From an uncultured Peptococcaceae bacterium (lineage in GTDB: Bacteria; Bacillota; Dehalobacteriia; UBA4068; UBA4997), in the NCBI GenBank assembly GCA_947625705.1, contig CANQPG010000001.1:56963-120962 (forward strand): DNA of 64,000 nt, read 5' to 3'. Below the pieces are notes generated by a model that did no database searches, was not told the DNA's origin, and saw only the letters and a list, made by a program, of their open reading frames with translations. Numbering within the stretch: position 1 is the first letter of the stretch; every line of letters starts with the position of its first letter. Positions 12,761 to 33,181 of the stretch are shown piece by piece. The position numbers and the translations under genes were made by a program.

Positions 12761-12796
12761 AAAGCGGCGCCGGTTTTGACCGGACGCCGCTTTTTC
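12761..12796 (+). terminator. rho-independent terminator after the vanY-like gene
   Basis: GCGGCGCCGG..CCGGACGCCGC stem plus TTTTT. Confidence 0.6.
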
Positions 12797-12813
12797 ATGC
12801 CCTTTTGGCGGGT

Positions 12814-13587: not shown

Positions 13588-13632
13588 TAAAAACCCCTCC
13601 CTTTGCTGCGGTTCGCCGCAGTATTTTAAGCT

Positions 13633-14115: not shown

Positions 14116-14126
14116 CTTCGGTCTCC

Positions 14127-14402: not shown

Positions 14403-14414
14403 ATTGCCACCTCC

Positions 14415-14699
14415 TTAATCGTTGCCCAGCAGCCGGGGGCAGGCGTCATAAAGCGAGACTTCGCCCGCCGCCAGCCGCAGCTTTTCCTGACGTGAAAGCT
14501 GTTTGATCAATACCTCCGCCCGCCGCGCCAAATGCTCGGAGGGAAGCTGCTGCTGCCAGACCAGGCGCACCGGCAGACGCGAGCGGGTATACTTGGCGCC
14601 CCGCCCGGCGTTATGCGCGGCCGCCCGCTCCGCCGGGTTCTTGGCCAGCCCGGTGTAAAGCGTGCCGTCCGCGCACTCCAGCATATAAACAAAACGCAT
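14415..14699 (-). CDS. GIY-YIG nuclease domain protein (UPF0213 family)
   Basis: N-terminal FVYMLECADGTLYTGLAKN is a GIY-YIG motif. Confidence 0.75.
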   Translation of the reverse strand: MRFVYMLECADGTLYTGLAKNPAERAAAHNAGRGAKYTRSRLPVRLVWQQQLPSEHLARRAEVLIKQLSRQEKLRLAAGEVSLYDACPRLLGND

Positions 14700-15325: not shown

Positions 15326-15365
15326 CGCTGATCCCTCCCAGTCCTGAGTTTTCGCTAAAAGGGCG

Positions 15366-16643: not shown

Positions 16644-16655
16644 CTCACCCCGCTA

Positions 16656-18203
16656 TCAATAATGGAAATGGCGCACGCCGGTGAACACCATCGCGATACC
16701 CGCTTCGTCCGCCGCCGCGATGGAATTTTCGTCATAAATCGAGCCGCCCGGCTGAATGATCGCCGAAACTCCCCGCTTGGCGCAGGCGTCCACCACATCG
16801 CGGAACGTGAAGAACGCGTCGGAGGCCAGCACCGCGCCGAAAGTGCGCTGCTCCGCCACCTTAAACGCCATTTCAATGGAGGTAATGCGGCTCATCTGCC
16901 CCGCGCCGACGCCGACCACCTGATAATCGTTGGCCAGCACCACGGCGTTGGACTTCACGTGCTTGGCCACCGTCATGGCAAAGCGCATCTGCGCCAGCTC
17001 CGCCTCGGTCGGCTGCCGCTTGCTTACCACGCGCAGCTCCTCCTCCGCCGGGGCGGTCATGTCGTTATCCTGCAATAAAATGCCGTTATGCACCTGATAG
17101 AAATTGACCCGCGGGTGCGGCGCGGCCAGCTTTTCGCCATCGCCCACCGTAAGCAGCCGCAGGTTCGGCTTGGCCTTAAAAATCTCCAGCGCTTCGGGAG
17201 TGAAACCGGGAGCGATCACCGCCTCCAGGAAGGTGGCCGTCATCTCGCGGGCAGTCGCCGCGTCCACCGGACGGTTCACCGCCACAATGCCGCCGTAGGC
17301 CGCCAGCGTATCGCCCTGATAAGCCCGGCTGTACGCCTCGGCCAAGGTATCGGCCAGCGCCAGACCGCAGGGGTTGGTATGCTTGATGATGGTGGCCGCC
17401 GGGCGGTCAAACTCGCGCACCAGCTCCAGCGCCGCGTCCAGATCAAGCGTGTTGTTATAGGAAAGCGGCTGGCCGGCCAGCTGTTTAGCCGAACCCACAC
17501 CGTCCGCGTCGTCGCCGAAGCGGGCGTAGAGCACCGCCTGCTGCTGCGCGTTTTCGCCGTAACGCAGCTCGGCCTTTTTCTCGCCCAGCAGCAGCAAATT
17601 CTGGGGGAATTTCTCCGCCGTGCCGGTGATATTTTGCAGATAGGTGGAAATGAACGTGTCATATTCCGCCGTGTGGCGGAACGCCGCCGCCGCCAGCTCC
17701 AGCCGGTATGCTTCGTCCAGCGTGCCTGCTTGCAGCCGCTCGATCACCTCGGGATATTTGGCCGGGTCGGTGACGATGGTGACATATTTGTTGTTCTTGG
17801 CCGCGGCGCGCACCATCGAGGGGCCGCCGATGTCAATATTCTCGATCGCGTCGGCCAGCGTCACGTCCGGCTTGGCCACCGTCTGGCGGAAAGGATACAA
17901 ATTGACCGCCACCAGATCCACCGGCGTGATGTTGTGCTCCTTAAGCTGCGCCAGATGATCGGGCGTGCGCATGGCCAAAATGCCGCCGTGGATATAAGGG
18001 TTCAGCGTCTTCACACGCCCGTCCAAAATCTCGGGGAAGCCGGTCACATCGCTGACGTAGGTGACGGGGATACCCGCCGCGTGAATGGCGTTATACGTGC
18101 CGCCCGTCGATACGATCTCAAAATCCAAATCCACCAGCGCCCGGGCAAATTCCAACACGCCGGTTTTATCGGAAACGCTGATGATTGCTCTTCTGGAAGC
18201 CAT
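16656..18203 (-). CDS. purH: bifunctional AICAR transformylase/IMP cyclohydrolase
   Basis: Full-length PurH. The start at MASRRAII has a GAGGAGG Shine-Dalgarno. Confidence 0.93.
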   Translation of the reverse strand: MASRRAIISVSDKTGVLEFARALVDLDFEIVSTGGTYNAIHAAGIPVTYVSDVTGFPEILDGRVKTLNPYIHGGILAMRTPDHLAQLKEHNITPVDLVAVNLYPFRQTVAKPDVTLADAIENIDIGGPSMVRAAAKNNKYVTIVTDPAKYPEVIERLQAGTLDEAYRLELAAAAFRHTAEYDTFISTYLQNITGTAEKFPQNLLLLGEKKAELRYGENAQQQAVLYARFGDDADGVGSAKQLAGQPLSYNNTLDLDAALELVREFDRPAATIIKHTNPCGLALADTLAEAYSRAYQGDTLAAYGGIVAVNRPVDAATAREMTATFLEAVIAPGFTPEALEIFKAKPNLRLLTVGDGEKLAAPHPRVNFYQVHNGILLQDNDMTAPAEEELRVVSKRQPTEAELAQMRFAMTVAKHVKSNAVVLANDYQVVGVGAGQMSRITSIEMAFKVAEQRTFGAVLASDAFFTFRDVVDACAKRGVSAIIQPGGSIYDENSIAAADEAGIAMVFTGVRHFHY

Positions 18204-18236
18204 AGTTTTTTCCTCCTCGCCCAATTTTGCTTATAT

Positions 18237-18848
18237 TTAATCGGAAATCAACACCCGCCGACCCTTAACCGTGAGCTTGCCCTCGGCCAAAAGACGCAGC
18301 GCCAGCGGGTAGATGATATGCTCCTGCTCCAAAATGCGGGCGGCCAGGGTATCGGCTTCGTCATCTTCCAGCACCGGCACCGGCGCCTGCAAGATGATGG
18401 GGCCGCTGTCCAGCCCCGCGTCCACAAAATGCACCGTGCAGCCCGATACTTTCACGCCATGCTCCCACGCCTGCCGCTGGGCGTGCAGACCGGGAAAAGC
18501 GGGCAGCAGCGCCGGGTGAATGTTCAGCACGCGCCCGGGAAAAGCGTCCAGCAGCGTCGGGGTGACAATTCTGAGATAGCCCGCCAGCGCCACGGTATCG
18601 GCGCCAGAGAGCTGCAAAAGCTTCACTATCTTCGCGTCATATTCCTCACGCGTGGCAAAGTCCTTGGGCTCCACCACCGCCGTGATAATGCCCGCTTCCT
18701 CTGCCCGCGTCAATGCGTAAGCGTCCGGTTTATCGGATATGACCAGCACGACCTCCGCCGGGAGCGTCCCCGCCCGCGCCTCGTCGATGATGGCCTGCAA
18801 ATTGCTGCCGCTGCCGCTGGCCAGCACGCCGATTTTAAGTTTCTGCAT
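18237..18848 (-). CDS. purN: phosphoribosylglycinamide formyltransferase
   Basis: A formyltransferase fold, 203 aa. Confidence 0.9.
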   Translation of the reverse strand: MQKLKIGVLASGSGSNLQAIIDEARAGTLPAEVVLVISDKPDAYALTRAEEAGIITAVVEPKDFATREEYDAKIVKLLQLSGADTVALAGYLRIVTPTLLDAFPGRVLNIHPALLPAFPGLHAQRQAWEHGVKVSGCTVHFVDAGLDSGPIILQAPVPVLEDDEADTLAARILEQEHIIYPLALRLLAEGKLTVKGRRVLISD

Positions 18849-18861
18849 AACGCCCTCCCGT

Positions 18862-19884
18862 CTATCTGATAACCACGCCGGGGGCGTCCGCCCCGCGCTG
18901 CGTCATACGCCCGATAACTCTGCCCTCCGGGCAGGCGGCCAGCACCTTATCGGCCTCGCTCTGCGGCACGATGATCACATAGCCGATACCCATGTTGAAC
19001 ACGCGGTACATCTCGGCGTCGGCAATTTCGCCGCGCGCCCGGATCAGATCGAAGATGGCCGGTCGCTCCCAGGTATTGCTGTCGATCTCAGCGCAAAGCC
19101 CCTCGTTATAGACGCGGGGCAGGTTCTCCAGCAAGCCCCCGCCGGTGATATGGCACATGCCGTGAATATCGACGCTATCCAAAAGCGGCAGAACGTCTTT
19201 TACATAAATGCGCGTGGGGGTCAGCATGGCTTCGCCGATCGTTTGGCCGAGGATATCGTCATACTCCTCCGCCGCCGCTTCGTTCGGCAGCAGCACCCGC
19301 CGCGCCAGCGAAAAACCGTTGCTGTGCAGCCCGGTGGAGGGCAGGCCGATCAGCACGTCGCCCGCCGCCACCTTGTCGCCGGTCAGAATTTTGCTTTTAT
19401 CCGCCACGCCGACGGCAAAGCCCGCGACGTCATAATCCTCGTCAGGATAGAAGCCCGGCATTTCCGCCGTTTCGCCGCCGATCAGCGAGCAGTTACTCTG
19501 CCGGCAGCCCTCGGCCACGCCTTTGACGATGGCGGCCACGCGGTCAGGGTCAAGCTTCCCCACGGCAATATAATCGAGGAAGAACAGCGGCTCTGCCCCC
19601 TGCACCAAAATGTCGTTCACGCACATGGCCACCGCGTCGATACCGATGGTGTCGTGCTTGTCCAGCAGCTGGGCAACGCGCAGCTTCGTCCCCACGCCGT
19701 CGGTGCCGGCAAGCAGCACCGGCTCGCGGTATTTCTGCACGTCCAACCGGAAAAGCCCGGCAAAGCTGCCCAAGTCAGTCAAAACCTCGGGGCGGTAAGT
19801 GCTCTGCACAAAGCCTTTCATCTTCTGCACCGCCAGATTGCCCGCGTCGATGTCCACGCCGGCGTCTTTATAGGATATTGCCAT
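18862..19884 (-). CDS. purM: phosphoribosylformylglycinamidine cyclo-ligase
   Basis: AIR synthetase family. Confidence 0.92.
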
Positions 19885-19907
19885 AGAGAGACCTCCTTTT
19901 TTGCTGT

Positions 19908-21374
19908 TTATTCGGTAATATTGAATTTGAAGCGTTCCTGATTTTTGCTGTGCTGCTTGGGCACGCTGATCGGATACTGGCCGGTGAAGCAGCCCTCGCA
20001 GTATTTATAGGGGCATTCCTTGATCATTTCCGGGAAATGCTCGGCTTTCAGATAACCGAGGCTGTCCACATTGATGTCCCGCGCGATCTCATCGAGCGTT
20101 TTTTGGTTGGCGATCAGATTGTCCGGTGTGTCCACGTCCGTCCCGAAATAGCAGCTGTATTTGAACGGCGGCGAACCGATCCGGGCATGCACCTCCACCG
20201 CGCCCGCGTCGCGCAGTATCTCCACAATACGCTTGCTCGTCGTGCCGCGCACGATGGAGTCGTCAACCATGATGACGCGCTTGCCCGCCACCGTTTCCCG
20301 CAGAGCGTTCAGCTTGATTTTGACGGAATTTTCCCGCTGCCCCTGCGTTGGCTGGATAAACGTGCGCGCGATATAGCGGTTCTTGATGAAGCCCACGCCG
20401 TAGGGGATACCCGATTCCTGCGCATAGCCCAGGGCGACGTCCAAGCCGCTGTCCGGTACGCCGACCACCACGTCGGCCTCCACCGGGTAATCCCGCGCCA
20501 GCAGCTTCCCGGCTCGCAGCCGCGCCCGGTGTACCGATACGCCCTCGATCGTGGAATCCGGACGGGCAAAATAACAATACTCAAATATGCAGATGCCGCC
20601 GGGGTGCTTATCACAATGGGTGGTAATGCTGCGGGGGCCGTTTTCGTCGATCACGACAATTTCGCCGGGGCGGATATCGCGTACAAACTCGGCGCCGATA
20701 CATTCAAGCGCGCAGGATTCGGAAGCCACCAGCCAGGCGCTGCCCATCTTGCCCAGGCAGAGCGGACGGAAGCCGTGCGGATCGCGCACTGCCAGCAGCT
20801 TGTTGCCGCAGGCCAGCGCCAGCGAATAGGCGCCTTTCAGGCGGAACATGGCAATTTCCATCGCCTCTTCCAACGTCTCGGTTTGCAGCCACTCCTCAAT
20901 GATCACGGAGGCGATGACCTCGGTATCGCTGGTGGCGGAAAACGTGACGCCCTTGCTCTCCAATTTCTGCTTCAGCTCCGGTGTGTTCACCAGATTGCCG
21001 TTATGCGCCAGCGTCAAAAGCCCCTTGAAATGCCGCAGGAATATCGGCTGGGCGTTGAAGCGATAAGGCTGGCCGGTGGTGGAATAGCGCGTGTGGCCGA
21101 TGGCGATTTGGCCGCCGCCCAGCTCCGCTAAATTCTCCTTGGTGAAAACGTCGGGCACCAGCCCCAGATCCTTGTGCAGCGAGACCGCGCCATGATCCAG
21201 CACGGCAATGCCGCAGCTTTCCTGGCCGCGGTGCTGCAAAGCGTAAAGCGCCATGTATGTTTTCTGCACCACGTTGGTTGCACCCGTCGCGTCGTATATC
21301 CCGAAGACGCCGCATTCCTCATGCAGTTCGTCGCCGGGGTGCTGCCTGTCGAAGGCCATGCAGTCCTTGCTCAT
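19908..21374 (-). CDS. purF: amidophosphoribosyltransferase
   Basis: N-terminal nucleophile CGVFGI plus a PRTase domain. Confidence 0.93.
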
Positions 21375-21388
21375 AAAGCCTCAACTCC

Positions 21389-22687
21389 TTAAAAAATTCC
21401 GGCTCGTTTATATACATAATCAATGTTCCGCAGAAAATACTCGTAATCGAACAGCTCGTCCAGCTCGTCCGGCGCGATAAAAGCCATAATTTCCGCGTCC
21501 TGCAACAGTTCATAAGCAAAATCGGTGCGTTCATTATAAGAGCGCATCGCGTTCCGCTGCACCATGGCGTAGGCCTGCTTGCGCGGCACGCCCCGCTCCA
21601 ACAGCGTCATCAGCACCCGCTGCGAGAAAATCAGCCCCCGCGTCAGATCGAGGTTGGCCTCCATACGCTCATGGTTGACGCTCATGGTCGTCAGCGTGTC
21701 GATCATCTGCTGTAACATAAAATCGGCCAGTACACAGCTGTCCTGCACGATCACCAGCTCCGCCGGCGAATGGGTCAGATCCCGCTCGTCCCAAAGGGCG
21801 ACGTTTTCCAGCGCCGCCATCGCGTTGGCGCGGAGAATTCTCGCCAGGCCGCTCACGCGCTCCGCTTTCACGGGGTTGATCTTATGCGGCATAGCGCTGG
21901 CGCCGATCATGCCCGGCTCCAGCGGCTCGCTGATCTCTTTAATTTCTGTACGCTCAAGGGTGCGTATCTCCACCGCGAATTTATCCAGCGTGGAGCCCAA
22001 AAGCGCCAGCGCCAGCATTAATTCGGCGTGGCGGTCGCGCTGCAATATCTGCGAGCTGGCCGTGGCCTGCTTCAGATCAAGTCTTCGGCAGACATGTTCC
22101 TCCACAAACGGCTCAATGTGGGCGTAAAGCCCCGTCACACCGGAAATTTTGCCGACGGCGACCACGTTCCGCGCCTGCTGCATACGGTTGATGGTGCGGT
22201 CAAGCTCGCTTACCCAGACGACCATCTTCATGCCGAAGCTCATCGGCTCGGCCTGTATGCCATGGGTTCGCGCCACCATCAGCGTGTATTTGTGCTTCTT
22301 GGCCAGCTCGGCCACAATATCGCGCAGCTGGTAAAGCTTGCCGGTGATCAGATCGACCGCCTGCTTCATCTGCACCGCCATCGCGGTATCCACAATGTCG
22401 GAGGAAGTCATGCCCCAATGCAGGTTTTTGGCGTTTTCCGGGCCCACCTGCTCCGTCACGGCCTCCAGAAACGCAGCCACATCGTGCTTGGTGACGGCCT
22501 CGATCTCTTTCACCCGCCGCACGTCCACACCGGCGCGCTTGACGATCTCCTCATAGCTTTCCGCGTCCAATTTACCGGAATCTTTCATCGCCTCGCAGGC
22601 GTAAAGCTCCACCTGCAACATCTGCTGCAAGCGGTTTTCGTCCGACCATATTTTTTCCATCTCCGGCAGACAGTATCGTGAAATCAC
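21389..22687 (-). CDS. purB: adenylosuccinate lyase
   Basis: Fumarase/ASL family, 432 aa. Confidence 0.92.
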   Translation of the reverse strand: MISRYCLPEMEKIWSDENRLQQMLQVELYACEAMKDSGKLDAESYEEIVKRAGVDVRRVKEIEAVTKHDVAAFLEAVTEQVGPENAKNLHWGMTSSDIVDTAMAVQMKQAVDLITGKLYQLRDIVAELAKKHKYTLMVARTHGIQAEPMSFGMKMVVWVSELDRTINRMQQARNVVAVGKISGVTGLYAHIEPFVEEHVCRRLDLKQATASSQILQRDRHAELMLALALLGSTLDKFAVEIRTLERTEIKEISEPLEPGMIGASAMPHKINPVKAERVSGLARILRANAMAALENVALWDERDLTHSPAELVIVQDSCVLADFMLQQMIDTLTTMSVNHERMEANLDLTRGLIFSQRVLMTLLERGVPRKQAYAMVQRNAMRSYNERTDFAYELLQDAEIMAFIAPDELDELFDYEYFLRNIDYVYKRAGIF

Positions 22688-22726
22688 CGCGCCGCCCTCC
22701 AGTCTTTTTGCAATTTATCCCCAATC

Positions 22727-23245
22727 CTATTTCTGCGCCAGGTAACCGGCCACGCCCAGTTTTTGCAGCTTGGCGTCCTTGGCCTCCACGCCGGCCAGCA
22801 GCCCCGCCTTGAAATCGGCCAGCTTCGCCGCCAGCTCCCCATCAGAGAGCGCCAGCATCTGCGCCGCCAAAATGCCGGCGTTGCGCGCCCCGTTGATAGC
22901 CACCGTGGCCACCGGAATACCCGAGGGCATCTGCACCATTGCCAGCAATGCGTCCAGCCCGGCAAGCGCCCCCGACTGGATCGGCACGGCAATGACGGGG
23001 AGCGTGGTTTCCGCCGCGATGACGCCCGCCAAATGCGCCGCGCCGCCCGCCCCGGCAATGATCACGCCAAACCCGGCCGCCGCCGCGCCCGCCGCTAACT
23101 TCGCCGTTTTCTCCGGCGCGCGGTGGGCGGAGGATATCCGCACCTCATACGGCACCGACAGCTCGTCCAACAGCTTGGCCGTCTCCTGCATAACGGGCAG
23201 ATCGGAATCGCTGCCCATGATAATAAGAACCTTTTTCATCGCCAA
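22727..23245 (-). CDS. purE: N5-carboxyaminoimidazole ribonucleotide mutase
   Basis: A 172-aa protein with the classic PurE sequence. Confidence 0.93.
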   Translation of the reverse strand: MAMKKVLIIMGSDSDLPVMQETAKLLDELSVPYEVRISSAHRAPEKTAKLAAGAAAAGFGVIIAGAGGAAHLAGVIAAETTLPVIAVPIQSGALAGLDALLAMVQMPSGIPVATVAINGARNAGILAAQMLALSDGELAAKLADFKAGLLAGVEAKDAKLQKLGVAGYLAQK

Positions 23246-23276
23246 ATCCCCCTATAATAACCCTGTATCAAACGCC

Positions 23277-25445
23277 TTAAAGCTGCAAAATATCCGCCAC
23301 CAGCTGCGGCATATCCGCCGGCGTCACCTCGGTATCATGCCGCACGGGCTTCTGCTCCAAACCGACCAAGGCGCGGTGCGCCGGGCGGCCGATTTTATTC
23401 GCGAGCTGCCGCAGCACCTCTTCCTCCGCCGCGTCCGGGGCAATAGCCTCACCCAGTGCCGCCAGCACCGCCCGCCCGAATTTGAACGGGCTGGCCGTAC
23501 TGGCGATGACTACCGGGACAGTATCGCCGCTTGCCTTGGCATATTCACCGTAAACGTGCGCCGCCACCGCCGTGTGCGGATCCAGCGCGTAATTTTGCTC
23601 GGCCAGATACTGCCGAATAGTTTCCGCCACCTGCTCTTCCGCCGCAAAGCCACCGGAGATGACCTCGCGCCAATGCTCCACTGCCTGCGGATCAGCCGTA
23701 AAAACGCCGTCCTGATCCAGCGCCGCGTAGGCCGCACGCACTTTCGCGGCATCGCCGCCTGTCATAGCATAATAGAAACGCTCAAAGTTGCTGCTGATCA
23801 GGATATCCATGCTGGGGCTGGTGGTTTTAACAAATTCCCGCCGCTTGTCGTAAACACCGGTCGCCAGCGCGTCGGCCAGCACCTTGTTGCTGTTGCTGGC
23901 GCAGACCAGGTGCTTGATCGGGAGCCCCATCTCCCGCGCGTAATAGGCGGCCAGAATGTTGCCGAAGTTCCCCGTCGGCACCGCCACGTTGAACGGCTCG
24001 CCGGGCTTAACGCTCCCCTGCCGCAGCAGCTCCGCATAGCTCCAGAAATAATAGACGATCTGCGGGCACAGCCGCCCCCAGTTGATGGAATTGGCGGAGG
24101 AAAAGCATTTACCCGCCGCCGCCAGCCTTGCGGCCAGCGCGTCGTCGCCGAAAATGCGCTTCACGCCGGTCTGGCAGTCGTCAAAATTGCCGCGGACGGC
24201 GCAGACGTACGTGTTATCGCCGTCGGTGGTGGCCATTTGCAGGTACTGCGCCCGGCTCACCCCGCCCGCGGGATAGAAGCAGATGATTTTGACGCCCGGC
24301 ACGTTTTTGAAGCCCTCCAGCGCGGCTTTGCCCGTGTCGCCGGAGGTGGCCACGAGGATATCGACCTCTTTTTCCTCACCGTCAATGCGCCCGGCCTCGG
24401 TCAAAAGGCGGGGCAGAATTTGCAGCGCCATGTCCTTGAACGCCGCCGTCGGCCCATGCCAAAGCTCCAATATATGCACGCCGCCCGCAAGCTTGGTCAG
24501 CGGCGCGATCTTCGCGTCGGCAAAGTTGTCGCCGTAGGCCGCCGCCACGATCTCATGCAGCGTGTCCTCCTGATAATCGGTCAAAAACAGCCCCAAAACC
24601 TTTTCGGCCAGCGTCTGATAGCTCATGGCGCTAAGCTCCGCCCAGGTGTAGGGGAAGCGCGGCAGTTCCTCCGGTACAAAAAGCCCGCCGCCCGGCACCA
24701 TGCCCAGGCGGATCGCCTGCGCCGCCGTCACCCCTTGGGAGTTCCCTCTGGTGCTGATATATCGCATCGGTTTCACCTCATTTGCCGCGGGGGACTTGGC
24801 GCACAGCCGAAAAATCGGCTGGCCGAGCGCCCGAAAGCGGCTTTCATATTCGGTTATCTCGTCCTCCGCCGCCTGTTTGGGCGGATAGTTACAGTCAATA
24901 TCGTGCAAATGCCAGCCCGCCGCCAGCAGCTGGTCGGCTGACCACTCAAACAGGCCGCGGTTGTCCGTCTTCAGCCAAAGCTCGCCCGCCGATGAGAGTA
25001 TTTGGGCATATACCGCCAGAAACCCCGCCGCCGTCAGCCGCCGCTTGGCGTGCTTTTTCTTCGGCCAGGGATCGGAAAAGTTCAGGTAGATACGGCTGAC
25101 CTCGCCCGGCGCAAAGCTATCCGCCAGCTTCGCCGCGTCCTGCCAGAGCAGCGCCAGATTGGGCGCGGGGGTATCGTCCGCCTCCGCCAGCTTTTCCAGC
25201 GCGCGCGCCAGCACGTCCTCATGCAGCTCCAGCCCCACTACGTTAAGCTGCGGGTTGTGCCGCGCCAGATCGTTGCAGAAGCGCCCTCGGCCGCAGCCGA
25301 TCTCCAGACAAAGCTTATCGCCCGCTGCGCCCCGGGCGGCAAAAAAAGCCTGCCAGCCCCCGGCGGGCGCGGTCGCCGGCGTCAGCACCAGATCAGGCGT
25401 GTTCTCTAATTTTTCCCGGCTGCCGGGAACATGTCGCAAACGCAT
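23277..25445 (-). CDS. in-frame fusion ORF: N-terminal tRNA (guanine46-N7)-methyltransferase TrmB (aa 1-226) plus C-terminal threonine synthase ThrC (aa 227-722)
   Basis: The TrmB domain has LEIGCGRG and DPWPKKKH motifs. The ThrC part begins MRYISTRG, and its ATG at 24767 is preceded by a GAGGTG Shine-Dalgarno. There is no in-frame stop between the two parts. Confidence 0.8.
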   Translation of the reverse strand: MRLRHVPGSREKLENTPDLVLTPATAPAGGWQAFFAARGAAGDKLCLEIGCGRGRFCNDLARHNPQLNVVGLELHEDVLARALEKLAEADDTPAPNLALLWQDAAKLADSFAPGEVSRIYLNFSDPWPKKKHAKRRLTAAGFLAVYAQILSSAGELWLKTDNRGLFEWSADQLLAAGWHLHDIDCNYPPKQAAEDEITEYESRFRALGQPIFRLCAKSPAANEVKPMRYISTRGNSQGVTAAQAIRLGMVPGGGLFVPEELPRFPYTWAELSAMSYQTLAEKVLGLFLTDYQEDTLHEIVAAAYGDNFADAKIAPLTKLAGGVHILELWHGPTAAFKDMALQILPRLLTEAGRIDGEEKEVDILVATSGDTGKAALEGFKNVPGVKIICFYPAGGVSRAQYLQMATTDGDNTYVCAVRGNFDDCQTGVKRIFGDDALAARLAAAGKCFSSANSINWGRLCPQIVYYFWSYAELLRQGSVKPGEPFNVAVPTGNFGNILAAYYAREMGLPIKHLVCASNSNKVLADALATGVYDKRREFVKTTSPSMDILISSNFERFYYAMTGGDAAKVRAAYAALDQDGVFTADPQAVEHWREVISGGFAAEEQVAETIRQYLAEQNYALDPHTAVAAHVYGEYAKASGDTVPVVIASTASPFKFGRAVLAALGEAIAPDAAEEEVLRQLANKIGRPAHRALVGLEQKPVRHDTEVTPADMPQLVADILQL

Positions 25446-25476
25446 AAGCAGGCTCCCTTATCCCAGAATATGTAGT

Positions 25477-25821
25477 TTAAACGTCGGCCAACAGCGCGTC
25501 GATCTCTTTATCAACGTCGTTCTTGGAAAGGCCGTGTTCCTTTTCCAGCCGAAGCGATATCGCCTCCGCCCAGAAAGAGAGCTTCTCGGCGATCTTCTTA
25601 TATTTTTTGACGTTGGCGTCCTTGGCCTTGCCACGGTCAATGGCGTTGGCCGCCACCACCGTGGTGATCGCCGTGGCTTTCACCAGATTTTCCTTGTCAT
25701 ACCCCTTATAGTTGGCCATAAACTCGGCCAGAACATCGCGGTAATAGGCGGAAAACTCCGCAAACGGAATTTCATCGTCCATTTGCAGGTATTCGCGCAG
25801 TTTGGCAAAAAGTGCTTCCAT
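25477..25821 (-). CDS. hypothetical protein (114 aa)
   Basis: The start MEALFAKL has a GGAGAGGAG Shine-Dalgarno. The longer track ORF runs into the RNase P RNA gene. Confidence 0.45.
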   Translation of the reverse strand: MEALFAKLREYLQMDDEIPFAEFSAYYRDVLAEFMANYKGYDKENLVKATAITTVVAANAIDRGKAKDANVKKYKKIAEKLSFWAEAISLRLEKEHGLSKNDVDKEIDALLADV

Positions 25822-25854
25822 GATCAATCTCCTCTCCGTTGCTTCGCCAAAAAC

Positions 25855-26221
25855 AATAAGCCGAGCCAAGCCTGTAAGCCGGGTTCTGTCGTGAACGGAC
25901 ATCTATCTGGTGCGGCTGTTGCCAGCCGCCTCCTGCGGCCCTTTTATGCAGGCAGGACGGGCAGCACTGTGCGCCTGCATTTGGCCTTGCTTCGGGTGGG
26001 GTTTACCTAGCCGGCCGGTCACCCGGCCGCTGGTGCGCTCTTACCGCACCGTTCCATCCTTGCCGGCGCTTGCGCGCTTAGGCGGTTTGTTTCTGTGGCA
26101 CTTTCCTTAAGATCACTCTCACCGGCCGTTAGCCGGCACCCTGCCCTGTGAAGCCCGGACTTTCCTCAGCGCGGGCCTTTTGGGTCTCCGCGCCGCGTCC
26201 GCTCAGCTTACTCGGCTTATA
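25855..26221 (-). ncRNA. rnpB: RNase P RNA, bacterial type A
   Basis: GAGGAAAGTCCGGGC, GGTAAGAGCGCACCAG, CAAGGCCAAAT and ACAGAACCCGGCTTA, in the expected order. P1 pairing links ATAAGCCGAG to CTCGGCTTAT. Confidence 0.9.
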
Positions 26222-26292
26222 TTTTTTGGTGAAAATCAATAAAAACTCCATTATTTTTATTGACTATTCATTATAGCATTTTTCCGCCGCTT

Positions 26293-26334
26293 ATGCAATA
26301 AAAAACCGCCCGAAAGCGCAGCTCTCCGGCGGTT
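26293..26334 (-). terminator. rho-independent terminator after the LUD-domain gene
   Basis: CCGCC..GGCGG stem followed by TTTTTTATT on the minus strand. Confidence 0.55.
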
Positions 26335-26367
26335 ATTTGGCAGTTTATGCCTGATATGTCAATGTGC

Positions 26368-27021
26368 TTAAAGCCCCAATTCCTCGCCGATAATGACCAC
26401 CTCGGCATAGGCGCGCTTCATGCGGTGCAGATGAATTACCAGCGCGTTGCAGATACGCTCCGGGCTTTGGCAGTCATAACAGCGGTCGCCTTTTACCGCG
26501 CAGGGTGTTTTATACCCCTTACGCTGGGCGTTCTTGGGTGCGGCAATGTTCCGGGCGCGCCAGATCGCGCTCTCCAAGTCCGGGCAGAGCTTGTTCACGC
26601 CGAACACGAAATACACTTTCTCATGCCCATAGACCGTACCGGCCACGCGGTTGCCCATCGCGTCGATATTCACCAGCTCGCCGTTAATACTCGCCCCGTT
26701 CACCGACGTTAAAAACACCGCGGTGTGCTGCGTCTCCGGAATGATCTCAAAAAAATCGCGCCCGTCCGCCGGGTGCATGGGGTCGATGACCTGATTGTGC
26801 GCCAAGAGCTTTTCATACACGCCGATGTTATACAGCGTCCGCGAGTCGCCGAAGCCCACCGTCTCGCCATCTATGGCCGCGTCCAGATAAGCCGCCGCCG
26901 CCGCGCCCGCGGCAAAATAATGCGCTATGTAGCCTTTCCGCTCAAACGCCGCCAGCACCTGCGCCATATCCAATTCCGCCGCTTGGCAAACGCGGCAATT
27001 CTGCTCTGCCATCTGCGTCAC
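26368..27021 (-). CDS. LUD-domain (DUF162, LutC-like) protein
   Basis: A 217-aa protein with family-level similarity to lactate-utilisation C-type proteins. Confidence 0.5.
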   Translation of the reverse strand: MTQMAEQNCRVCQAAELDMAQVLAAFERKGYIAHYFAAGAAAAAYLDAAIDGETVGFGDSRTLYNIGVYEKLLAHNQVIDPMHPADGRDFFEIIPETQHTAVFLTSVNGASINGELVNIDAMGNRVAGTVYGHEKVYFVFGVNKLCPDLESAIWRARNIAAPKNAQRKGYKTPCAVKGDRCYDCQSPERICNALVIHLHRMKRAYAEVVIIGEELGL

Positions 27022-27024
27022 CCC

Positions 27025-27831
27025 TTATAACTTCGCGCCGTCCGCGCCGTAAAACTGCCAGCTGTCCGCTTCCTCGGCAAAATGCACCGCAAGCCCCGGC
27101 ATTTGTTCTTGCAGCAGCCGCGCCAGCCGCCGGATACCGATGACCTCGGTGGCAAAATGCGTTCCGTCCAGCACGGCAAAGCCCGCGTTCGCCGCCTGCA
27201 AGCCCTCGTGGTGCTTGGGGTCGGCGGAAAGAAAAGCGTCGCAGCCCGCCGCCTGCGCCTCTTGCCAAAATTCCATGCCCGCGCCGCCGCAGACGCCCAG
27301 CCGTCGGTAGGTTTTATCCGCACGAAGCCCCGCCGCCCGGATAACCGGCAAGCCCAGCGCCCGCGCCACGGTTTTAAGCAGCTCCCCCGCCGCCAGCCCC
27401 TCAGGCAAATCACCCGCCAGCAGCAAAATCTCCTCGCCCGCGCCCGGCTCGGCAAACGGCTTGATGTTAACAAGCCCCAGCGCCTCGGCCAGCCCCCAGT
27501 TGATGCCGCCCGGCGCGTTATCCCAGTTGGTATGGCAGGCCACGGCCGCCATGTCGGCCTTGATCAGCGCCGTTATCATATCGCCCTCATAGCGGCCGGG
27601 CAGCACCTGCTTCTGGCCGTGGAAGATGAACGGGTGGTGCGTCAAAATCAGGTTGCAATCCGCCTGCTTGGCCTGTTCGATCACGTCCGCAGTCAAATCC
27701 AGCGCCGCCATCACGCCGCGGCACTCTGCCCCGGCGTCCCCCAGCAGCAGGCCGGGGTTATCCCAATCCGCCGCCAGCTCCGGCGGCGCCAGGCGGTGCA
27801 GCACCTCGCATATTTCGGCAATTTTCGGCAT
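27025..27831 (-). CDS. Nif3-family dinuclear metal-centre protein (YqfO-like)
   Basis: NIF3 signature (NLILTHHP..HTNWD), conserved downstream of trmK. Confidence 0.85.
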   Translation of the reverse strand: MPKIAEICEVLHRLAPPELAADWDNPGLLLGDAGAECRGVMAALDLTADVIEQAKQADCNLILTHHPFIFHGQKQVLPGRYEGDMITALIKADMAAVACHTNWDNAPGGINWGLAEALGLVNIKPFAEPGAGEEILLLAGDLPEGLAAGELLKTVARALGLPVIRAAGLRADKTYRRLGVCGGAGMEFWQEAQAAGCDAFLSADPKHHEGLQAANAGFAVLDGTHFATEVIGIRRLARLLQEQMPGLAVHFAEEADSWQFYGADGAKL

Positions 27832-28553
27832 TATTTCTCACTCCCTTTGGCGGTTTTCTCGTCGATCCCGGCAATCACCTTGGCCACGCGGGAGATTTCC
27901 TCCTCCAGCTGATCCTTACGCGCCATGCTGTCCGGGCTGAAGTTGTCGGCCATTGCTTCCAAAAGCCGCGTCAGGTCGCGCTCCCGCAGGCTCAGAAAAT
28001 CCTTGAACAGCGGGTGGCCGCAGGATAACAGCAGGGGGCCAAACTCCGCCTCCAGGTCGGATAGCTGCATTTCGCCCGGCTCCGCCGCGATGATCTCATA
28101 ATAAAAGCCGTCGTCCTCGGCCAAGTCCTCGGCCACAATGCGGAAGCCGTTATCGGCCAGAAACCGCCGCACGGCGGCCACGTTCCGCTGCGGCTGCAAA
28201 ACCAGGCGCAGCGCCGCCCTGGCCTGCGCCATGCCCTCGGCGATGATCTCGGTTATCGCCATGCCGCCCATACCGGCAATACAGATAACTTCCGCCTCAC
28301 CGGGAGAGAGCACCGAGAGGCCGTCGCCCAGCCGGCAGCTGATCTGATTTTCCAGCGAGAGCAGCCCCACCAGCTGCTCCGCCTGCGAGAGCGGCCCTTT
28401 GCCGCGGTCACTGGCGATGATTTGCGGCGAGATATCGTTCACCGCCAAAAACACCGGCAGATAGCCGTGATCCGTCCCGATATCCGCCACCCGGCGCCCG
28501 GCGGGTATCTGCCGCGCCACGGCCTGCAAACGGTTGGAAAGCTTTATCCGCAT
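27831..28553 (-). CDS. trmK: tRNA (adenine22-N1)-methyltransferase
   Basis: YqfN/TrmK family (VADIGTDHGYLP). Confidence 0.85.
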   Translation of the reverse strand: MRIKLSNRLQAVARQIPAGRRVADIGTDHGYLPVFLAVNDISPQIIASDRGKGPLSQAEQLVGLLSLENQISCRLGDGLSVLSPGEAEVICIAGMGGMAITEIIAEGMAQARAALRLVLQPQRNVAAVRRFLADNGFRIVAEDLAEDDGFYYEIIAAEPGEMQLSDLEAEFGPLLLSCGHPLFKDFLSLRERDLTRLLEAMADNFSPDSMARKDQLEEEISRVAKVIAGIDEKTAKGSEK

Positions 28554-28674
28554 GACAACCTCCTGTTACACTATCTTCTCTGCTTATTATGACCGCAGTT
28601 TCGGCCTCTATGATAATTACAGAAAATAACCGGGTTTTCCTGCCTTTTTGGCAATATTTTCCGCATTTTTGCGA

Positions 28675-28824
28675 GGCTCCGATAAAACTTTTCCGCTCCA
28701 TGACCTGCGCAAATTACGCGGAAAAGTATTATCCGAGCCCGCAATGCTTTGGGCGGGGCATTGATAAAACTTTCCGCTTCATGACCTGCGCAAATTACGC
28801 GGAAAGTATTATCAATACCCGCCG
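28675..28824. repeat. palindromic intergenic repeat cluster 1: two copies (28675-28740, 28756-28824) plus a degenerate third upstream
   Basis: Each unit is GATAAAACTTTYCCGC-TYCATGACCTGCGCAAATTAC-GCGGAAARGTATTATC. Its arms are reverse complements forming ~16-bp stems. Confidence 0.8.
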
Positions 28825-28835
28825 GTGCAAAGGAG

Positions 28836-28866
28836 CAAAAAAATGCCGGGGCAAACACCCCGGCAT
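28836..28866 (-). terminator. rho-independent terminator of the carboxyltransferase gene
   Basis: ATGCCGGGG-caaaca-CCCCGGCAT followed by a 7-U run on the minus strand. Confidence 0.7.
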
Positions 28867-28871
28867 TAAGC

Positions 28872-30293
28872 TTATTTATTATACTTTTGTTCAAGGAACG
28901 GTTTAGCAACCTGCGGGAACATGATGTACAACAGCAAGTCCTCGTCGTTTTTCGCCAAATCGCCGATCTCCTTTTTCGCGTCCTCCAGATAAGGCGGCAG
29001 ATCGTCCGCCGGGCGGTGCGTAATGCTGGGCAGATCGCCGATGATCTGCTTCTTGATCGCCTCGTCCATCGGCGCGGGCGGCTGGCCGTAATGCCCCTGG
29101 AAGTATGCCTTGACCTCGTTGGTCACCATCTTATAGCGCCCGCCGGAAAGCACGTTCATCAGCGCCTGCGAGCCAACGATCTGGCTGCTGGGCGTCACCA
29201 GCGGCGGATAACCCATATCCTTGCGGACGCGCGGCACCTCGGCCATCACCTCGTCCAGGCGATCCAGCGCGTTGGCGGCCTTAAGCTGCGAGAGGAAGTT
29301 GCTCATCATGCCGCCGGGAATTTGGCTGGCCAGCACGGTCGGGTCAACGCCAGGGTTAGAGATATCGTATTCCTTGTAATGGGTACGAATTTCCTTGACC
29401 TTGGGCGCGATCGCCAGCAGTTTTTCGATATCAATGCCGGTGTCATAGGGCGTACCCTTAAGCACGGCCACCATCACCTCGTCCGCCGGCTGGGAAGTAC
29501 CCATCGCGAGCGGGCTCATCGCGCAGTCCACCACGTCGCAGCCCGCCTCGATCGCTTTCATATAGCTCATCGCGGCCATGCCGGTGGTGTAATGGCAATG
29601 CAGCTGCACCGTGAGGCCAACCTGCTCCTTAATGCCTTTTACCAGGTCATAAGCGCCGTAAGGGTAAATCAGGCCGCTCATGTCCTTAATGCAGATACTG
29701 TCCGCGCCCATCGCTTTCAGCTTTTTGGCGATCTCCACGAAATGCGCGGTGTTATGCACCGGGCTGTTGGTGTAGGATACCGCCACCTGGGCGTGGCCGC
29801 CGTATTTCTTGGTGGCTTTCACGGCGCTTTCCACGTTGCGCACATCGTTCAGCGCGTCGAAAATGCGGATAATATCAATGCCGTTTTCGATACACTTCTT
29901 CACAAACAGATCGACCACGTCGTCGGAATAATGCCGGTAGCCCAGCAGATTCTGACCGCGCAGCAGCATTTGCAGCTTGGTGTTGGGGCAGGCCTTGCGG
30001 ATTTGGCGCAGGCGCTCCCACGGGTCCTCGTTCAAAAAGCGCATACAGCTGTCGAAAGTGGCGCCGCCCCAAACCTCCATGCTGTGAAAACCCACCTTAT
30101 CCAGATCCGACGCGACGGAGAGAATATCCTCCAGCGTCATACGGGTGGCAAGCAGGCTTTGGTGCGCGTCGCGGAGCGTGGTGTCGGTGATACCGACCTT
30201 ATGCTTGGCCGCCGCCTGGGGCTTGGCCGCGGGCGCAGCAGCCGGGGCGGGGGCAGGGCTTTCGCCCAGCAGTTTTTTGAAGAAACCAGCCAT
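28872..30293 (-). CDS. carboxyltransferase 5S-type subunit (oxaloacetate decarboxylase alpha / pyruvate carboxylase subunit B-like), no biotinyl domain
   Basis: A DRE_TIM / HMGL-like carboxyltransferase domain (GITDTTLRDAHQS). The start at MAGFFKK has an AAGGAGG Shine-Dalgarno. Its length excludes a C-terminal biotin domain. Confidence 0.8.
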   Translation of the reverse strand: MAGFFKKLLGESPAPAPAAAPAAKPQAAAKHKVGITDTTLRDAHQSLLATRMTLEDILSVASDLDKVGFHSMEVWGGATFDSCMRFLNEDPWERLRQIRKACPNTKLQMLLRGQNLLGYRHYSDDVVDLFVKKCIENGIDIIRIFDALNDVRNVESAVKATKKYGGHAQVAVSYTNSPVHNTAHFVEIAKKLKAMGADSICIKDMSGLIYPYGAYDLVKGIKEQVGLTVQLHCHYTTGMAAMSYMKAIEAGCDVVDCAMSPLAMGTSQPADEVMVAVLKGTPYDTGIDIEKLLAIAPKVKEIRTHYKEYDISNPGVDPTVLASQIPGGMMSNFLSQLKAANALDRLDEVMAEVPRVRKDMGYPPLVTPSSQIVGSQALMNVLSGGRYKMVTNEVKAYFQGHYGQPPAPMDEAIKKQIIGDLPSITHRPADDLPPYLEDAKKEIGDLAKNDEDLLLYIMFPQVAKPFLEQKYNK

Positions 30294-30374
30294 GATGACC
30301 TCCTTATTATTCACAAAATTTCGCTTAGCAACAATATACGCGGCGGCAGCCCATAAGCCACCGTCCGCGTATTC

Positions 30375-30403
30375 ATTATACCTAATTTACGGGCGCTTTT
30401 CAA
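30375..30403 (-). promoter_or_regulatory. sigma-A promoter, TTGAAA-17-TATAAT, for the carboxyltransferase gene
   Basis: Hexamers at 30398-30403 and 30375-30380 on the minus strand. Confidence 0.5.
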
Positions 30404-30424
30404 CAATAATTTGCAATTAAGCCA

Positions 30425-30910
30425 TTATTTGGCCGTATGGAATTTTTGCAGCAGCGCCTCGGCCACGCAGGGCGAAATAATGCCGTCGGGTATCTGCCCC
30501 AATTCACTGAAGTTCTTGACGATACTGGAGCTGACAAACTGATATTCCGGTGACGTCATCAAAAAAACGGAGTCCATCTCAGGCGCGACGTTTTTGTTCA
30601 TCTGCGCCATCTGAAATTCCTTTTCAAAATCGGAAAGCGCCCTGAGCCCCCGAATGATCGCCACCGCGCCCTCCCGGCGGCAGAAATCCACCAGCAGGCC
30701 GTCGAACGGCTTGACCTCTACATTCGGCAGCTCTGCCACGGCCTGTTGGGCAATTTCACAGCGTTCCGCCGCCGTAAACAGCGTCTGCTTGTAATTATCC
30801 TCCGCCACCGCCAGTATCAGCTTGTCGAACAGGCGGCAGGCACGGCGCAGAATATCAATGTGCCCCAGCGTTATCGGGTCAAAAGTTCCGGCATATACGG
30901 CAATTTTCAT
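30425..30910 (-). CDS. coaD: phosphopantetheine adenylyltransferase
   Basis: AVYAGTFDPITLGHIDIL (T/HxGH motif). The start is at MKIAVY. Confidence 0.92.
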   Translation of the reverse strand: MKIAVYAGTFDPITLGHIDILRRACRLFDKLILAVAEDNYKQTLFTAAERCEIAQQAVAELPNVEVKPFDGLLVDFCRREGAVAIIRGLRALSDFEKEFQMAQMNKNVAPEMDSVFLMTSPEYQFVSSSIVKNFSELGQIPDGIISPCVAEALLQKFHTAK

Positions 30911-30914
30911 ATTA

Positions 30915-31577
30915 TTACTCCTGTTCGGCTGCCCCGTCCAGCTTGCGCTGCCAGACTTCCGGGTTGGATACCAGCTCGCGGCAAAGCTCGCCCAGGTTGC
31001 GCACGTCCTGCTCATAGGCGGCCTTTTTGCTCGCGTCATAGATCAGCGCGGCGGGGTGATACAGCGGGTAGACCCAGACGTTGTGGGTGCGCCAGAAGAA
31101 CGCCTGCCCGTGATAGCGGCCGACGGCGGCGCTTTCGCCCATCACATAGCTAAGCGGCACGCCGCCCAGCGTCACCAACAGCTTCGGCGCCAGCAGGCGC
31201 AGCTCCAGCTCCAGCCAGGGGGCGCAGGTCTTGATCTCGTCCGGGGTGGGCTTGCGGTTGGCATAGCTGCCGTAGATACCGCGATTGCTGGGGCGGGTGG
31301 GGCGGCATTTCACCACGTTGCTGATGTATACCTCCTCGCGCTTTAAGCCGGCCAGCCGCAGAAAATCGTCCAGAATTTCCCCGGCCTGCCCGCAGAACGG
31401 GCGCCCCTCCTGATCCTCGCGGCCGCCGGGCGCTTCGCCCAGCATGAACACCATCGGCTTTTCGCGGTATTCGCCCGCCACGGCCTGCGTGCGCGTTTCA
31501 CACAGGCGGCAGCGCCGGCATTGCTTCAGCGCCGCCAGCCAGGTGGCAAAATCCAGCGGCTTCTTTTCCTCCGCCAT
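30915..31577 (-). CDS. uracil-DNA glycosylase, family 4
   Basis: Family 4 UDG motifs GEAPG and Cys cluster CRRCRLC. Confidence 0.85.
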   Translation of the reverse strand: MAEEKKPLDFATWLAALKQCRRCRLCETRTQAVAGEYREKPMVFMLGEAPGGREDQEGRPFCGQAGEILDDFLRLAGLKREEVYISNVVKCRPTRPSNRGIYGSYANRKPTPDEIKTCAPWLELELRLLAPKLLVTLGGVPLSYVMGESAAVGRYHGQAFFWRTHNVWVYPLYHPAALIYDASKKAAYEQDVRNLGELCRELVSNPEVWQRKLDGAAEQE

Positions 31578-31607
31578 AGCGCGTTCCTCCGCTTAAAAAC
31601 TTCTTAT

Positions 31608-32879
31608 TCAGTCCTCATAACCGGGGGCCACGGCCACCGGCTGCGGCTCGTTTCCGGTCAGTCTTTTCGCCGCGTCTTCCGGGAACAGCATCGCGCGCAC
31701 CCGCATCGGCAGCGCAAAGATGTTGATGAACCCGGTACCGTCAGCCTGATTATACACGTCGTCCACGCCAAAGGTGGCAAAATCCTCGCTGTACAGCGAA
31801 TAGGGGCTCTCCGTACCCGCCGCCGTCACGCTGCCCTTATAGAGCTTCAGGCGGACTTTGCCGGTGACGGTGCGCTGGGTGCTGTCCACAAACGCGTCCA
31901 TCGCCTCGCGGAGCGGCGAGAACCACACGCCGTCATAAACCAGCTCGGCATAACGCAGCGCCAGCTGCTCCTTGTAGTGCATGGTCACGCGATCCAGGCA
32001 CAATTCCTCCAGCTTCTGGTGCGCGTAATAGAGAATGGTGCCGCCGGGCGTTTCATAGACGCCGCGGGACTTCATGCCCACCAGACGGTTTTCGATCATA
32101 TCCACAATGCCGACGCCGTTTTTGGCGCCCAGCTCGTTCAGATAATCCATCAGCGCGGCGGGGGCAAGCTCTTTCCCGTCTACCCGCACCGGGATACCCT
32201 GTTCAAACTCAATTTCCACATAGGTGGGGGTATCGGGCGCCTGCTCCGGCGGGGTGCAGATCAGGAACATTTCGTTCTTCGGCTCGTTGGCCGGGTCTTC
32301 CAGATCAAGCCCCTCATGGCTCAAATGCCAGAGGTTTCTGTCCATCGAATAGCTGGTCTTTTTGGTGACGGCCAGCGGCACGTTATGGGCGGCGGCGTAA
32401 TCCATCGCCTGATCGCGCGACTGAATATCCCACTCACGCCAAGGGGCGATGATCTTCAAATCGGGCGCCAGCGCCTTTACGGCGGACTCAAAACGCACCT
32501 GATCGTTGCCCTTGCCGGTCGCGCCGTGGGCAATGGCCACCGCGCCCTCCTTGCGGGCGATTTCCACCAGACGGCGGGCGATCAGCGGGCGGGCAAAGGA
32601 AGTACCCAGCAGGTATTTGCCCTCATAGACCGCGCCGGCTTTCATCGTCGGGTAAATGTAGTCGGTCACGAATTCGTCGCGCAGATCCTCGATATACAGC
32701 TTGGACGCGCCGGTTTTGATGGCTTTCTCTTTCAGCGGCGCCAGCTCTTCGCCCTGCCCCACGTCGGCGCTCATCGCGATAACGTCATAGCCGTAGTTTT
32801 CTTTCAGCCACGGAATGATGATCGAGGTGTCCAGACCACCGGAATACGCCAGCACAACTTTTTCTTTTTTGTTAGTCAT
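31608..32879 (-). CDS. argG: argininosuccinate synthase
   Basis: [11 protein letters not shown]-loop motif. 423 aa. Confidence 0.95.
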
Positions 32880-32987
32880 TTTGTTCGCTCCTTAAAAATG
32901 TTTTCTATTATAAAAGTTAATATTTTGAACGATTTTCGCCTATATTTTACTATATATTCCTGATTTTGCCAAGTGTTTTATTATCTG

Positions 32988-33172
32988 GCGGTCTTTGATA
33001 AATTTTTTCGCTACATGAGTTCCGCTTCGCTGCACTAAATTTCGCGAAAAAAATTATCAAAGCCCACTTTAACAAGCCCTTCATTGCCGGCGGGCTCGGA
33101 TAATACTTTCCCGCTGATTTTAGCGAAGCGCAGCGGAGGTCATGAAGCGGGAAAGTTTTATCGGAGCCCCGC
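32988..33172. repeat. palindromic intergenic repeat cluster 2: two copies (32988-33066, 33092-33172)
   Basis: The same family, long-loop variant with inner core CATGACCTCCGCTGCGCTTCGCTAAAAT. Confidence 0.75.
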
Positions 33173-33181
33173 AAAAACTTA

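Follow-up and report, generated by a model that had tools for sequence, protein, structure and literature searches.

An in-frame TrmB-threonine synthase fusion with a conserved internal thrC start region in gut and digester Clostridia

We analysed a 64,000-nucleotide stretch of DNA from an uncultured Peptococcaceae bacterium (GenBank assembly GCA_947625705.1, contig CANQPG010000001.1, positions 56,963 to 120,962), referred to below as the window. It contains a minus-strand open reading frame (ORF), trmB-thrC, in which a complete tRNA (guanine46-N7)-methyltransferase, TrmB, runs without a stop codon into a complete threonine synthase, ThrC. We consider it likely that this ORF yields two products: a stably selected, bifunctional TrmB-ThrC polypeptide, and free ThrC from a retained internal start. 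An ancestor in the Dehalobacterium/Candidatus Avidehalobacter group (Clostridia) carried thrC directly after trmB, the two genes being translationally coupled, and loss of the trmB stop codon joined the two frames. Initiation at the trmB ATG would now produce a TrmB-ThrC protein of about 80 kDa with both active sites intact. The old thrC initiation region survives inside the ORF and is kept by selection; it is made up of the ATG, a Shine-Dalgarno (SD) sequence 6-9 nt before it, and mRNA that is open locally. Free ThrC of about 55 kDa is therefore most likely produced from the same mRNA as well. Such dual output would permit the cell to make more threonine synthase than tRNA methyltransferase. 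We infer that the fused polypeptide is itself advantageous; no functional link between 7-methylguanosine-46 (m7G46) methylation of tRNA and threonine synthesis is evident.

Domain architecture and conservation of the fused protein

The fused ORF and its parts, all on the minus strand of the window, are as follows.

23277..25445, minus strand: fused trmB-thrC ORF, 722 codons plus a TAA stop; full-length fused homologues are known
25453..25459, minus strand: SD-like AAGGGAG, 7 nt 5' of the ORF's own ATG (25445..25443); anti-SD duplex energy -7.6 kcal/mol
24804..25445, minus strand: TrmB domain, tRNA (guanine46-N7)-methyltransferase, aa 1-214, assigned by Pfam, NCBIfam, and alignment to Bacillus subtilis TrmB (7NYB/2FCA)
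24768..24803, minus strand: linker, aa 215-226, CAKSPAANEVKP; former trmB 3' tail plus intergenic stretch
23280..24767, minus strand: threonine synthase domain, aa 227-722, long form with Thr_synth_N, assigned by Pfam, NCBIfam, and PDB alignment

The ORF list of the window gives 23277..25445 as one ORF with an ATG start and a product of 722 aa, and profile searches account for both of its parts. Pfam places Methyltransf_4 (PF02390) at aa 44-214, covering positions 3-173 of the 173 in the model, followed by Thr_synth_N at 228-304, PALP at 323-638, and THR4_C at 625-677; the ThrC models (PF14821, PF00291, and PF24857) all exceed their cut-offs. The NCBIfam equivalogs agree, with 151.4 bits for TrmB (TIGR00091; cut-off 112.65) and 229.8 bits for ThrC (TIGR00260; cut-off 167.1), and a further TrmB family model, NF001080, scores 135.8 against a cut-off of 132. 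In a PDB search, aa 1-214 align collinearly, end to end, with residues 1-207 of the 213 in B. subtilis TrmB, and aa 227-717 do so with Streptococcus pneumoniae ThrC (8G1Y, 452 bits). An initial annotation, made from the sequence alone, had described, without giving a strand, a single 722-codon ORF holding a complete TrmB and a complete ThrC that begins MRYISTRG, and the ORF list, Pfam, NCBIfam, and PDB alignments all bear this out. The same annotation had the domains joined without a linker, which calls for a minor correction: they are separated by a linker, though a short one, of some 6-12 residues (aa 215-226).

The residues expected of both active sites are in place. The TrmB domain carries motif I as LEIGCGRGRF and a catalytic-type aspartate, Asp125, in NFSDPWPK (codon 25073..25071), and its S-adenosylmethionine (SAM) and Asp motifs line up with those of B. 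subtilis TrmB. In the ThrC domain, the putative pyridoxal phosphate (PLP) lysine is K337 (codon 24437..24435), within an invariant PTAAFKD; it pairs in the alignment with K107, the PLP lysine of Escherichia coli ThrC (1VB3). Across 34 aligned fused homologues, the invariant motifs are LEIGCGRG, E73, NFSDPWPK (D125), KTDN, and TEYE in the TrmB part, and PTAAFKD (K337), SGDTGKAALEGF, SGDTGKA, SSANSINWGRL, and PTGNFGN in the ThrC part. Among these are the Rossmann-fold SAM motifs expected of TrmB and the PLP-lysine and glycine-rich phosphate-loop motifs expected of ThrC. The conserved Asp of the (S/T/P)DPW motif has been proposed as the catalytic centre of TrmB (PMC6320965). Invariance of this kind in both domains argues that both halves are under purifying selection as enzymes, and both activities are probably retained in the fusion.

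Structure prediction gives a similar picture. AlphaFold2, run on the 34-sequence alignment, returned a mean local confidence (pLDDT) of 89.6 and a predicted template modelling score (pTM) of 0.91 for the whole two-domain chain, a value that suggests a defined packing of the TrmB domain against the ThrC domain in the model. Foldseek matched the ThrC domain to 8G1Y with a template modelling (TM) score of 0.95 and the TrmB domain to TrmB structures with scores of 0.90-0.92; among the Foldseek matches there was no solved structure containing both domains.

The fused state is widely conserved. NCBI has a record of an identical 722-aa protein, encoded on a 191-kb contig, and a search of 5.8 billion protein clusters recovered 44 clusters of full-length fused homologues (47-91% identity, 96-100% query coverage, 704-754 aa), all 44 of which contain both Pfam domains. 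One of them, P0002 (HIU10832.1/UniRef100_A0A9D1KY80, from Candidatus Avidehalobacter gallistercoris), is 88% identical to the window protein and has been seen on 55 contigs or more. No ThrC-only protein above about 60% identity was present in the 5.8 billion clusters, with the exception of a fragment. A protein search with the TrmB domain found no stand-alone TrmB above 49% identity, the best reaching 48-49%; this search left the fused proteins unlisted too and was used solely for the question of close stand-alone TrmB proteins. An apparent 781-aa fusion, P0041, proved to be an internally duplicated ThrC, probably the result of misassembly, and was excluded.

In a neighbour-joining (NJ) tree of ThrC domains, the clade that contains the window protein (P0001-P0040) is wholly fused, save for one doubtful metagenome-assembled genome (MAG), L094. 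Further out in the tree, the fused proteins P0042-P0045 are interspersed among unfused proteins, a pattern that reflects either repeated fusions or repeated fissions. The fusion also persists despite differing neighbours: purE-purB-purF-purM-purN-purH lie downstream in closer relatives, and rsmF, pyruvate formate-lyase, or other genes in distant ones. A literature search found no paper on a TrmB-threonine synthase pairing. The architecture sits in public databases undescribed and half-annotated: proteins of about 720 aa are labelled only 'threonine synthase' at NCBI or only 'tRNA (guanine-N(7)-)-methyltransferase' at UniProt, so that one function is lost in each database.

One member of the P0002 cluster departs from the fused form. 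P0253, on a 1.8-kb Logan contig, has a 1-nt deletion in the linker that makes TrmB end at a TGA within GAGGTGA, the SD itself. It is either a natural fission allele or a read error, a single sighting against dozens of fused contigs.

These data also bear on whether the open frame in the window is an artefact, with a sequencing or assembly error having deleted the trmB stop or shifted the frame. The split variants L094, with a TAG before the thrC ATG, and P0253 place the junction one mutation away from a split state. The open frame is nevertheless common to 44 independent clusters from many samples and assemblers at 47-91% identity, insertions and deletions in the linker are always multiples of three, and L094 and P0253 themselves look error-prone or rare. 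We therefore regard an artefact as very improbable. The initial annotation had listed sequencing error as one of its possibilities, and the identical NCBI protein, the 88% identical homologue on at least 55 contigs, and the 44 clusters, formed at 90% identity, effectively exclude it.

The junction and its internal start region

Two further features, again on the minus strand, mark the start of the ThrC part.

24774..24779, minus strand: internal SD sequence GAGGTG (codons E223-V224), 6 nt 5' of the internal ATG
24765..24767, minus strand: internal ATG, Met227, the ancestral thrC start codon; Met at the same place across fused homologues

On the minus strand, the junction reads GAGGTG (24779..24774), AAACCG, and ATG (24767..24765), encoding ...SPAANEVKP-MRYISTRG with no in-frame stop. 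The initial annotation had noted an internal Met with a good ribosome-binding site and no stop in frame, and this description holds: GAGGTG stands 6 nt before the ATG in a continuous frame. Met occupies the junction in 34 of 34 aligned fused homologues and, when scored by motif, in 43 of 43 clusters. The position of Met227 is that of the thrC start codon in the split relatives L001, L026, L094, L095, and L098, and split relatives start thrC from the same SD and ATG.

We compared the junction DNA of 11 fused loci, the window included, measuring linker identities against the window for the other 10. All 11 retain the ATG and, 6-9 nt before it, a purine motif. The SD is GAGGTGAAA (GAGGTG type) in five loci, AAGGAG in five, and GGAAGGAAGG (GGAAGG at the same place) in one, with SD/anti-SD duplex energies of -6.9 to -11.7 kcal/mol. 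In nine of the 11 loci, the junction SD equals or exceeds in strength the SD of the gene's own start, the exceptions being the window and L081 (own start -7.6, junction -6.9 kcal/mol). Compared with every other codon position of its gene, the junction SD is within the top 0-8%, and scarcely any other in-frame ATG matches it.

This signal stands out from its surroundings. Linker identity to the window is 14-75%, compared with 41-84% for TrmB and 53-90% for ThrC; it is 45% or less in eight of the 10 loci, and the closest relatives, L081 and L091, reach 75% and 67%. Linker length is just as variable, the spacing from TEYE to the Met taking 19 values between 25 and 51 residues among 43 fused clusters, every one of them in frame. 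At the protein level, position -4 from the Met is E in 34 of these 43 clusters, G in eight, and D in one, and position -3 is V in 29 and D in six; positions from -5 outward are free. The window has the shortest linker of its clade. The linkers of L083 and of P0018-P0026 contain N/D/K-rich inserts of 10-25 residues, and the DNA of the L083 insert is 22% GC versus 48% for the gene. Such AT-rich inserts look like intergenic or standby sequence that has expanded and come to be translated.

Codon usage at the SD is more constrained than the protein sequence requires. Within the five-locus GAGGTG clade, whose ThrC identities are 70-90%, the same codon is used in all five at 18% of the columns that hold an identical degenerate residue. 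GAG GTG AAA is codon-identical in all five of these loci, which is true of just 1 of 168 comparable consecutive triplets, and AAG GAG is codon-identical in five other loci. The mRNA at the internal start is also unusually open: in each of the 11 loci, the folding of a 60-nt segment with the ATG at its centre is weaker than the background of the gene (z of +0.5 to +3.0, mean +1.7), and in seven of them it falls among the weakest 5%. Overall, an in-frame start with an SD at 5-10 nt, conserved beyond coding need, was found in all 11 loci. These observations point to an internal initiation region held by selection as a nucleotide signal, and a start region under selection implies that free ThrC is most likely made as well. 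Use of the internal site for ThrC production is thus probable, judging from conservation.

The 80-kDa TrmB-ThrC protein might instead be the sole product, with the internal Met and the apparent SD being relics or reflecting protein-level constraint on the linker and the ThrC N-terminus. Such a protein would be consistent with the continuous ORF and the fixation of the fused state in the clade, a pTM of 0.91 suggests an integrated two-domain protein, and K/E/G-rich linkers are common and encoded by purine-rich codons. Protein constraint alone, however, would not lead one to expect that the synonymous sites of the SD are kept (GAG GTG AAA in five loci, AAG GAG in five) against a background of 18% codon-identical columns, that the distance from SD to ATG stays at 6-9 nt while the adjoining upstream linker varies in both sequence and length, that the Met is present in 43 of 43 clusters, or that the mRNA is open at the ATG in 11 of 11 loci. 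The synonymous conservation, constant spacing, and open mRNA lead us to disfavour a fused protein as the only product, and we rate it as possible but unlikely.

Split relatives and the origin of the fusion

Production of both the fusion and free ThrC, the reading that we prefer, gains a plausible history from loci in which the genes are still separate. In L001, from a Dehalobacterium sp. MAG, trmB and thrC share a frame, and the trmB stop is 36 nt ahead of the thrC ATG. In L026, a TAA lies 13 nt before the thrC ATG and touches the 5' edge of the SD, with thrC in a different frame. Both had been taken for fused loci from tblastn coverage, and translation showed both to be split; they were the only relevant loci among the matches listed in a genome-contig scan with the fused alignment, the rest being mostly unrelated unfused ThrC. 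A frame-blind DNA pattern spanning the TrmB C-terminus and the ThrC N-terminus, verified on known loci and used to scan a metagenome collection, returned five loci. Two of these are fused (L096 and L097) and three are split (L095, L098, and L099, the last two being equal). L095 has separate trmB and thrC genes in different frames, and L098/L099 have a TAATG stop/start overlap (junction at about 950-965 in L098). An overlap of this type is a classic translational-coupling arrangement, and the L098/L099 form is likely to be the ancestral form of the fusion. Among 77 other Clostridia loci, none had trmB within 6 kb of thrC.

In L094, a TAG abuts the thrC ATG, and synteny is the same as at the fused locus L089. 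In this MAG (GCA_964261755.1; 4380..5010), trmB is also frameshifted in its 5' part, and the D of the otherwise invariant ThrC motif SGDTGK is changed to Y. Either its assembly is error-prone or the genes are decaying, and its quality is doubtful.

Adjacent split pairs with stops 0-36 nt before the thrC ATG show that the ancestral state in this group was a tightly coupled trmB-thrC pair and that the fusion arose through loss of the trmB stop. The initial annotation had weighed a real bifunctional fusion against stop-codon loss that leaves thrC translated both fused and independently. Both are supported, and the two are compatible with each other: the split abutting pairs show the stop loss, and at the nucleotide level the internal SD and ATG are conserved in every fused locus examined. 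Comparison of the junction in related genomes, proposed there as a check, located a stop or frameshift only in distant relatives and in the doubtful L094 and P0253, and none in the window's clade. Programmed readthrough or frameshifting was considered and rejected, there being no stop or frame change to bypass. The loci together offer a clean natural series of gene joining: stop and start overlap in the first form, the stop abuts the start in the next, and the frames are fused in the last, which is the state of a whole clade of gut and digester Clostridia. A long-kept internal start would keep the fusion reversible and allow unequal output of the two enzymes.

Domain-fusion methods of function prediction would read TrmB-ThrC as a functional link, and the pairing most likely reflects just gene neighbourhood and translational coupling. 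Under functional coupling, either the SAM-binding TrmB domain would regulate the attached ThrC or TrmB would use ThrC as a module for oligomerisation or scaffolding, and in both cases the pairing would be adaptive in itself. In its favour, the frame has long stayed open across an otherwise free linker, and a pTM of 0.91 would imply a fixed interface. B. subtilis-type TrmB is a homodimer, unlike other TrmBs (PMC6320965). The fold matches include a plant threonine synthase with SAM (2C2B), merely as a distant ThrC homologue. In plants, threonine synthase is activated by SAM. The invariant catalytic and tRNA-enzyme motifs of the TrmB part, however, fit a housekeeping methyltransferase and not a sensor domain, split relatives manage with separate proteins, and conservation of the internal start implies a need for free ThrC. 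We also know of no pathway, and found no paper, linking m7G46 to threonine synthesis, and we hold functional coupling to be improbable. In its most specific form, for which we see equally little prospect, a fixed TrmB-ThrC complex would let the occupancy of SAM, S-adenosylhomocysteine, or tRNA modulate ThrC, or let ThrC oligomerise TrmB, with the internal start tuning the ratio of fused to free enzyme. If true, this would link bacterial methyl-group or tRNA status to threonine synthesis, much like the SAM-activated plant enzyme but through a different domain.

Several points weigh against the bifunctional protein with additional free ThrC that we favour, or against parts of it. The junction GAGGTG of the window itself (-6.9 kcal/mol) ranks merely in the top 8% of positions in the gene. 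Purine-rich codons for K, E, and G are typical of hydrophilic linkers, and the SD signal could partly arise at the protein level. Access to the internal site may be blocked by ribosomes still elongating from trmB. The pTM of 0.91 is based on a shallow alignment of 34 sequences, and the census of fused and split loci is small, with two fused and three split by the frame-blind scan. Because the deep branches of the NJ tree are unreliable, it does not discriminate between one fusion with later fissions and several fusions. A second trmB or thrC was absent from the 64-kb window, which was the extent of this check.

Genomic context and comparison with known systems

The neighbouring features, all on the minus strand, are listed from upstream to downstream of the fused gene.

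27025..27831, minus strand: NIF3/DUF34 gene, upstream cluster
26368..27021, minus strand: LUD-domain gene, between NIF3 and rnpB
25858..26214, minus strand: RNase P RNA (rnpB), bacterial class A; Rfam RF00010 at 274.6 bits (gathering score 100)
25477..25821, minus strand: small gene of 114 aa with no Pfam family, directly 5' of trmB-thrC across a 31-nt gap
22727..23239, minus strand: purE (aminoimidazole ribonucleotide carboxylase), first gene of the pur cluster; ATG at 23239, 37 nt after the thrC stop
21389..22687, minus strand: purB, downstream of purE

The minus-strand order is trmK, NIF3, the LUD-domain gene, rnpB, the 114-aa gene, trmB-thrC, purE, and purB. Upstream of nearly all related loci, whether fused or split, lies a homologue of the 114-aa gene (112-126 aa; for example, L081 5622-5966, L089 5629-5976, L094 3999-4343, and L026), which seems to be a conserved trmB partner. 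A mechanically called ORF of 141 aa, 25477..25902, overruns rnpB, and its first 27 codons are therefore spurious. In relatives, trmK lies further upstream. Overall, trmB sits within a conserved tRNA modification and processing cluster (trmK, NIF3, and rnpB) into which thrC appears to have been inserted.

The initial annotation had placed the start of a pur operon 30 nt downstream and suggested that all units may be co-transcribed. The adjacency stands and the distance does not: the purE ATG is 37 nt from the thrC stop, and 31 nt corresponds to an upstream TTG. Our observations on terminators and riboswitches cover 22727..23276 (minus strand) and 12000..34000. No terminator-like site was detected in the 37-nt thrC-purE gap or at the purE start, and no riboswitch (purine included), T-box, promoter, or convincing terminator was found to separate the units. 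One weak terminator-like match, at 23311-23295 (6-pair stem, 4 GC), lies inside the thrC 3' end and stops about 16 nt upstream of the stop codon; the region has 17 such matches against 9.3 expected, many of them equally weak. A pur start without a purine riboswitch is, to our knowledge, unusual for pur operons of Bacillota. A purE start with neither riboswitch nor terminator implies read-through transcription from upstream, and co-transcription of trmB-thrC with purE is plausible. The trmB-thrC-purE order is shared with L081, L083, L090, L091, and L092 and is confined to closer relatives.

Each half of the fused protein has a well-known enzyme as its counterpart. The TrmB part shares 38-40% identity, TM scores of 0.90-0.92, the SAM motifs, and the Asp of (S/T/P)DPW with stand-alone TrmB proteins (B. 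subtilis 2FCA/7NYB and S. pneumoniae 1YZH), but it runs on without a stop into a 496-residue enzyme. The ThrC part resembles the long-form enzymes (S. pneumoniae 8G1Y, E. coli 1VB3, and yeast 1KL7), with 47% identity and 452 bits to 8G1Y and a TM score of 0.95. Unlike these, the window protein has an N-terminal TrmB, and the thrC start and SD lie inside the upstream ORF. The split coupled pairs (L001, L026, L094, L095, and L098) share its gene order, its small upstream gene, and its thrC SD and ATG, whereas they have a stop codon between the genes, some with a frame change, where the window has none.

There is precedent for fusing TrmB to an unrelated enzyme in the PrmC/TrmB proteins (NCBIfam NF002421) and the extended TrmBs of PRK14121, although these have another partner and domain order. 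The window protein falls far below the cut-offs of both models, scoring 30.7 against 567 bits for NF002421, through its TrmB part only, and 73.5 against 402 bits for PRK14121. Internal in-frame starts are likewise familiar. In infB (the IF2 forms), clpB, and cheA, an internal in-frame SD and ATG give a full-length and an N-terminally shortened product from one mRNA. The internal start of trmB-thrC differs from these in that it is inherited from a formerly separate gene, and its short product would be a complete, different enzyme. Both enzymes and in-frame internal starts are well known, and trmB-thrC is a genuine and tidy example of two genes fused with the internal start retained, rather than a system of a new kind.

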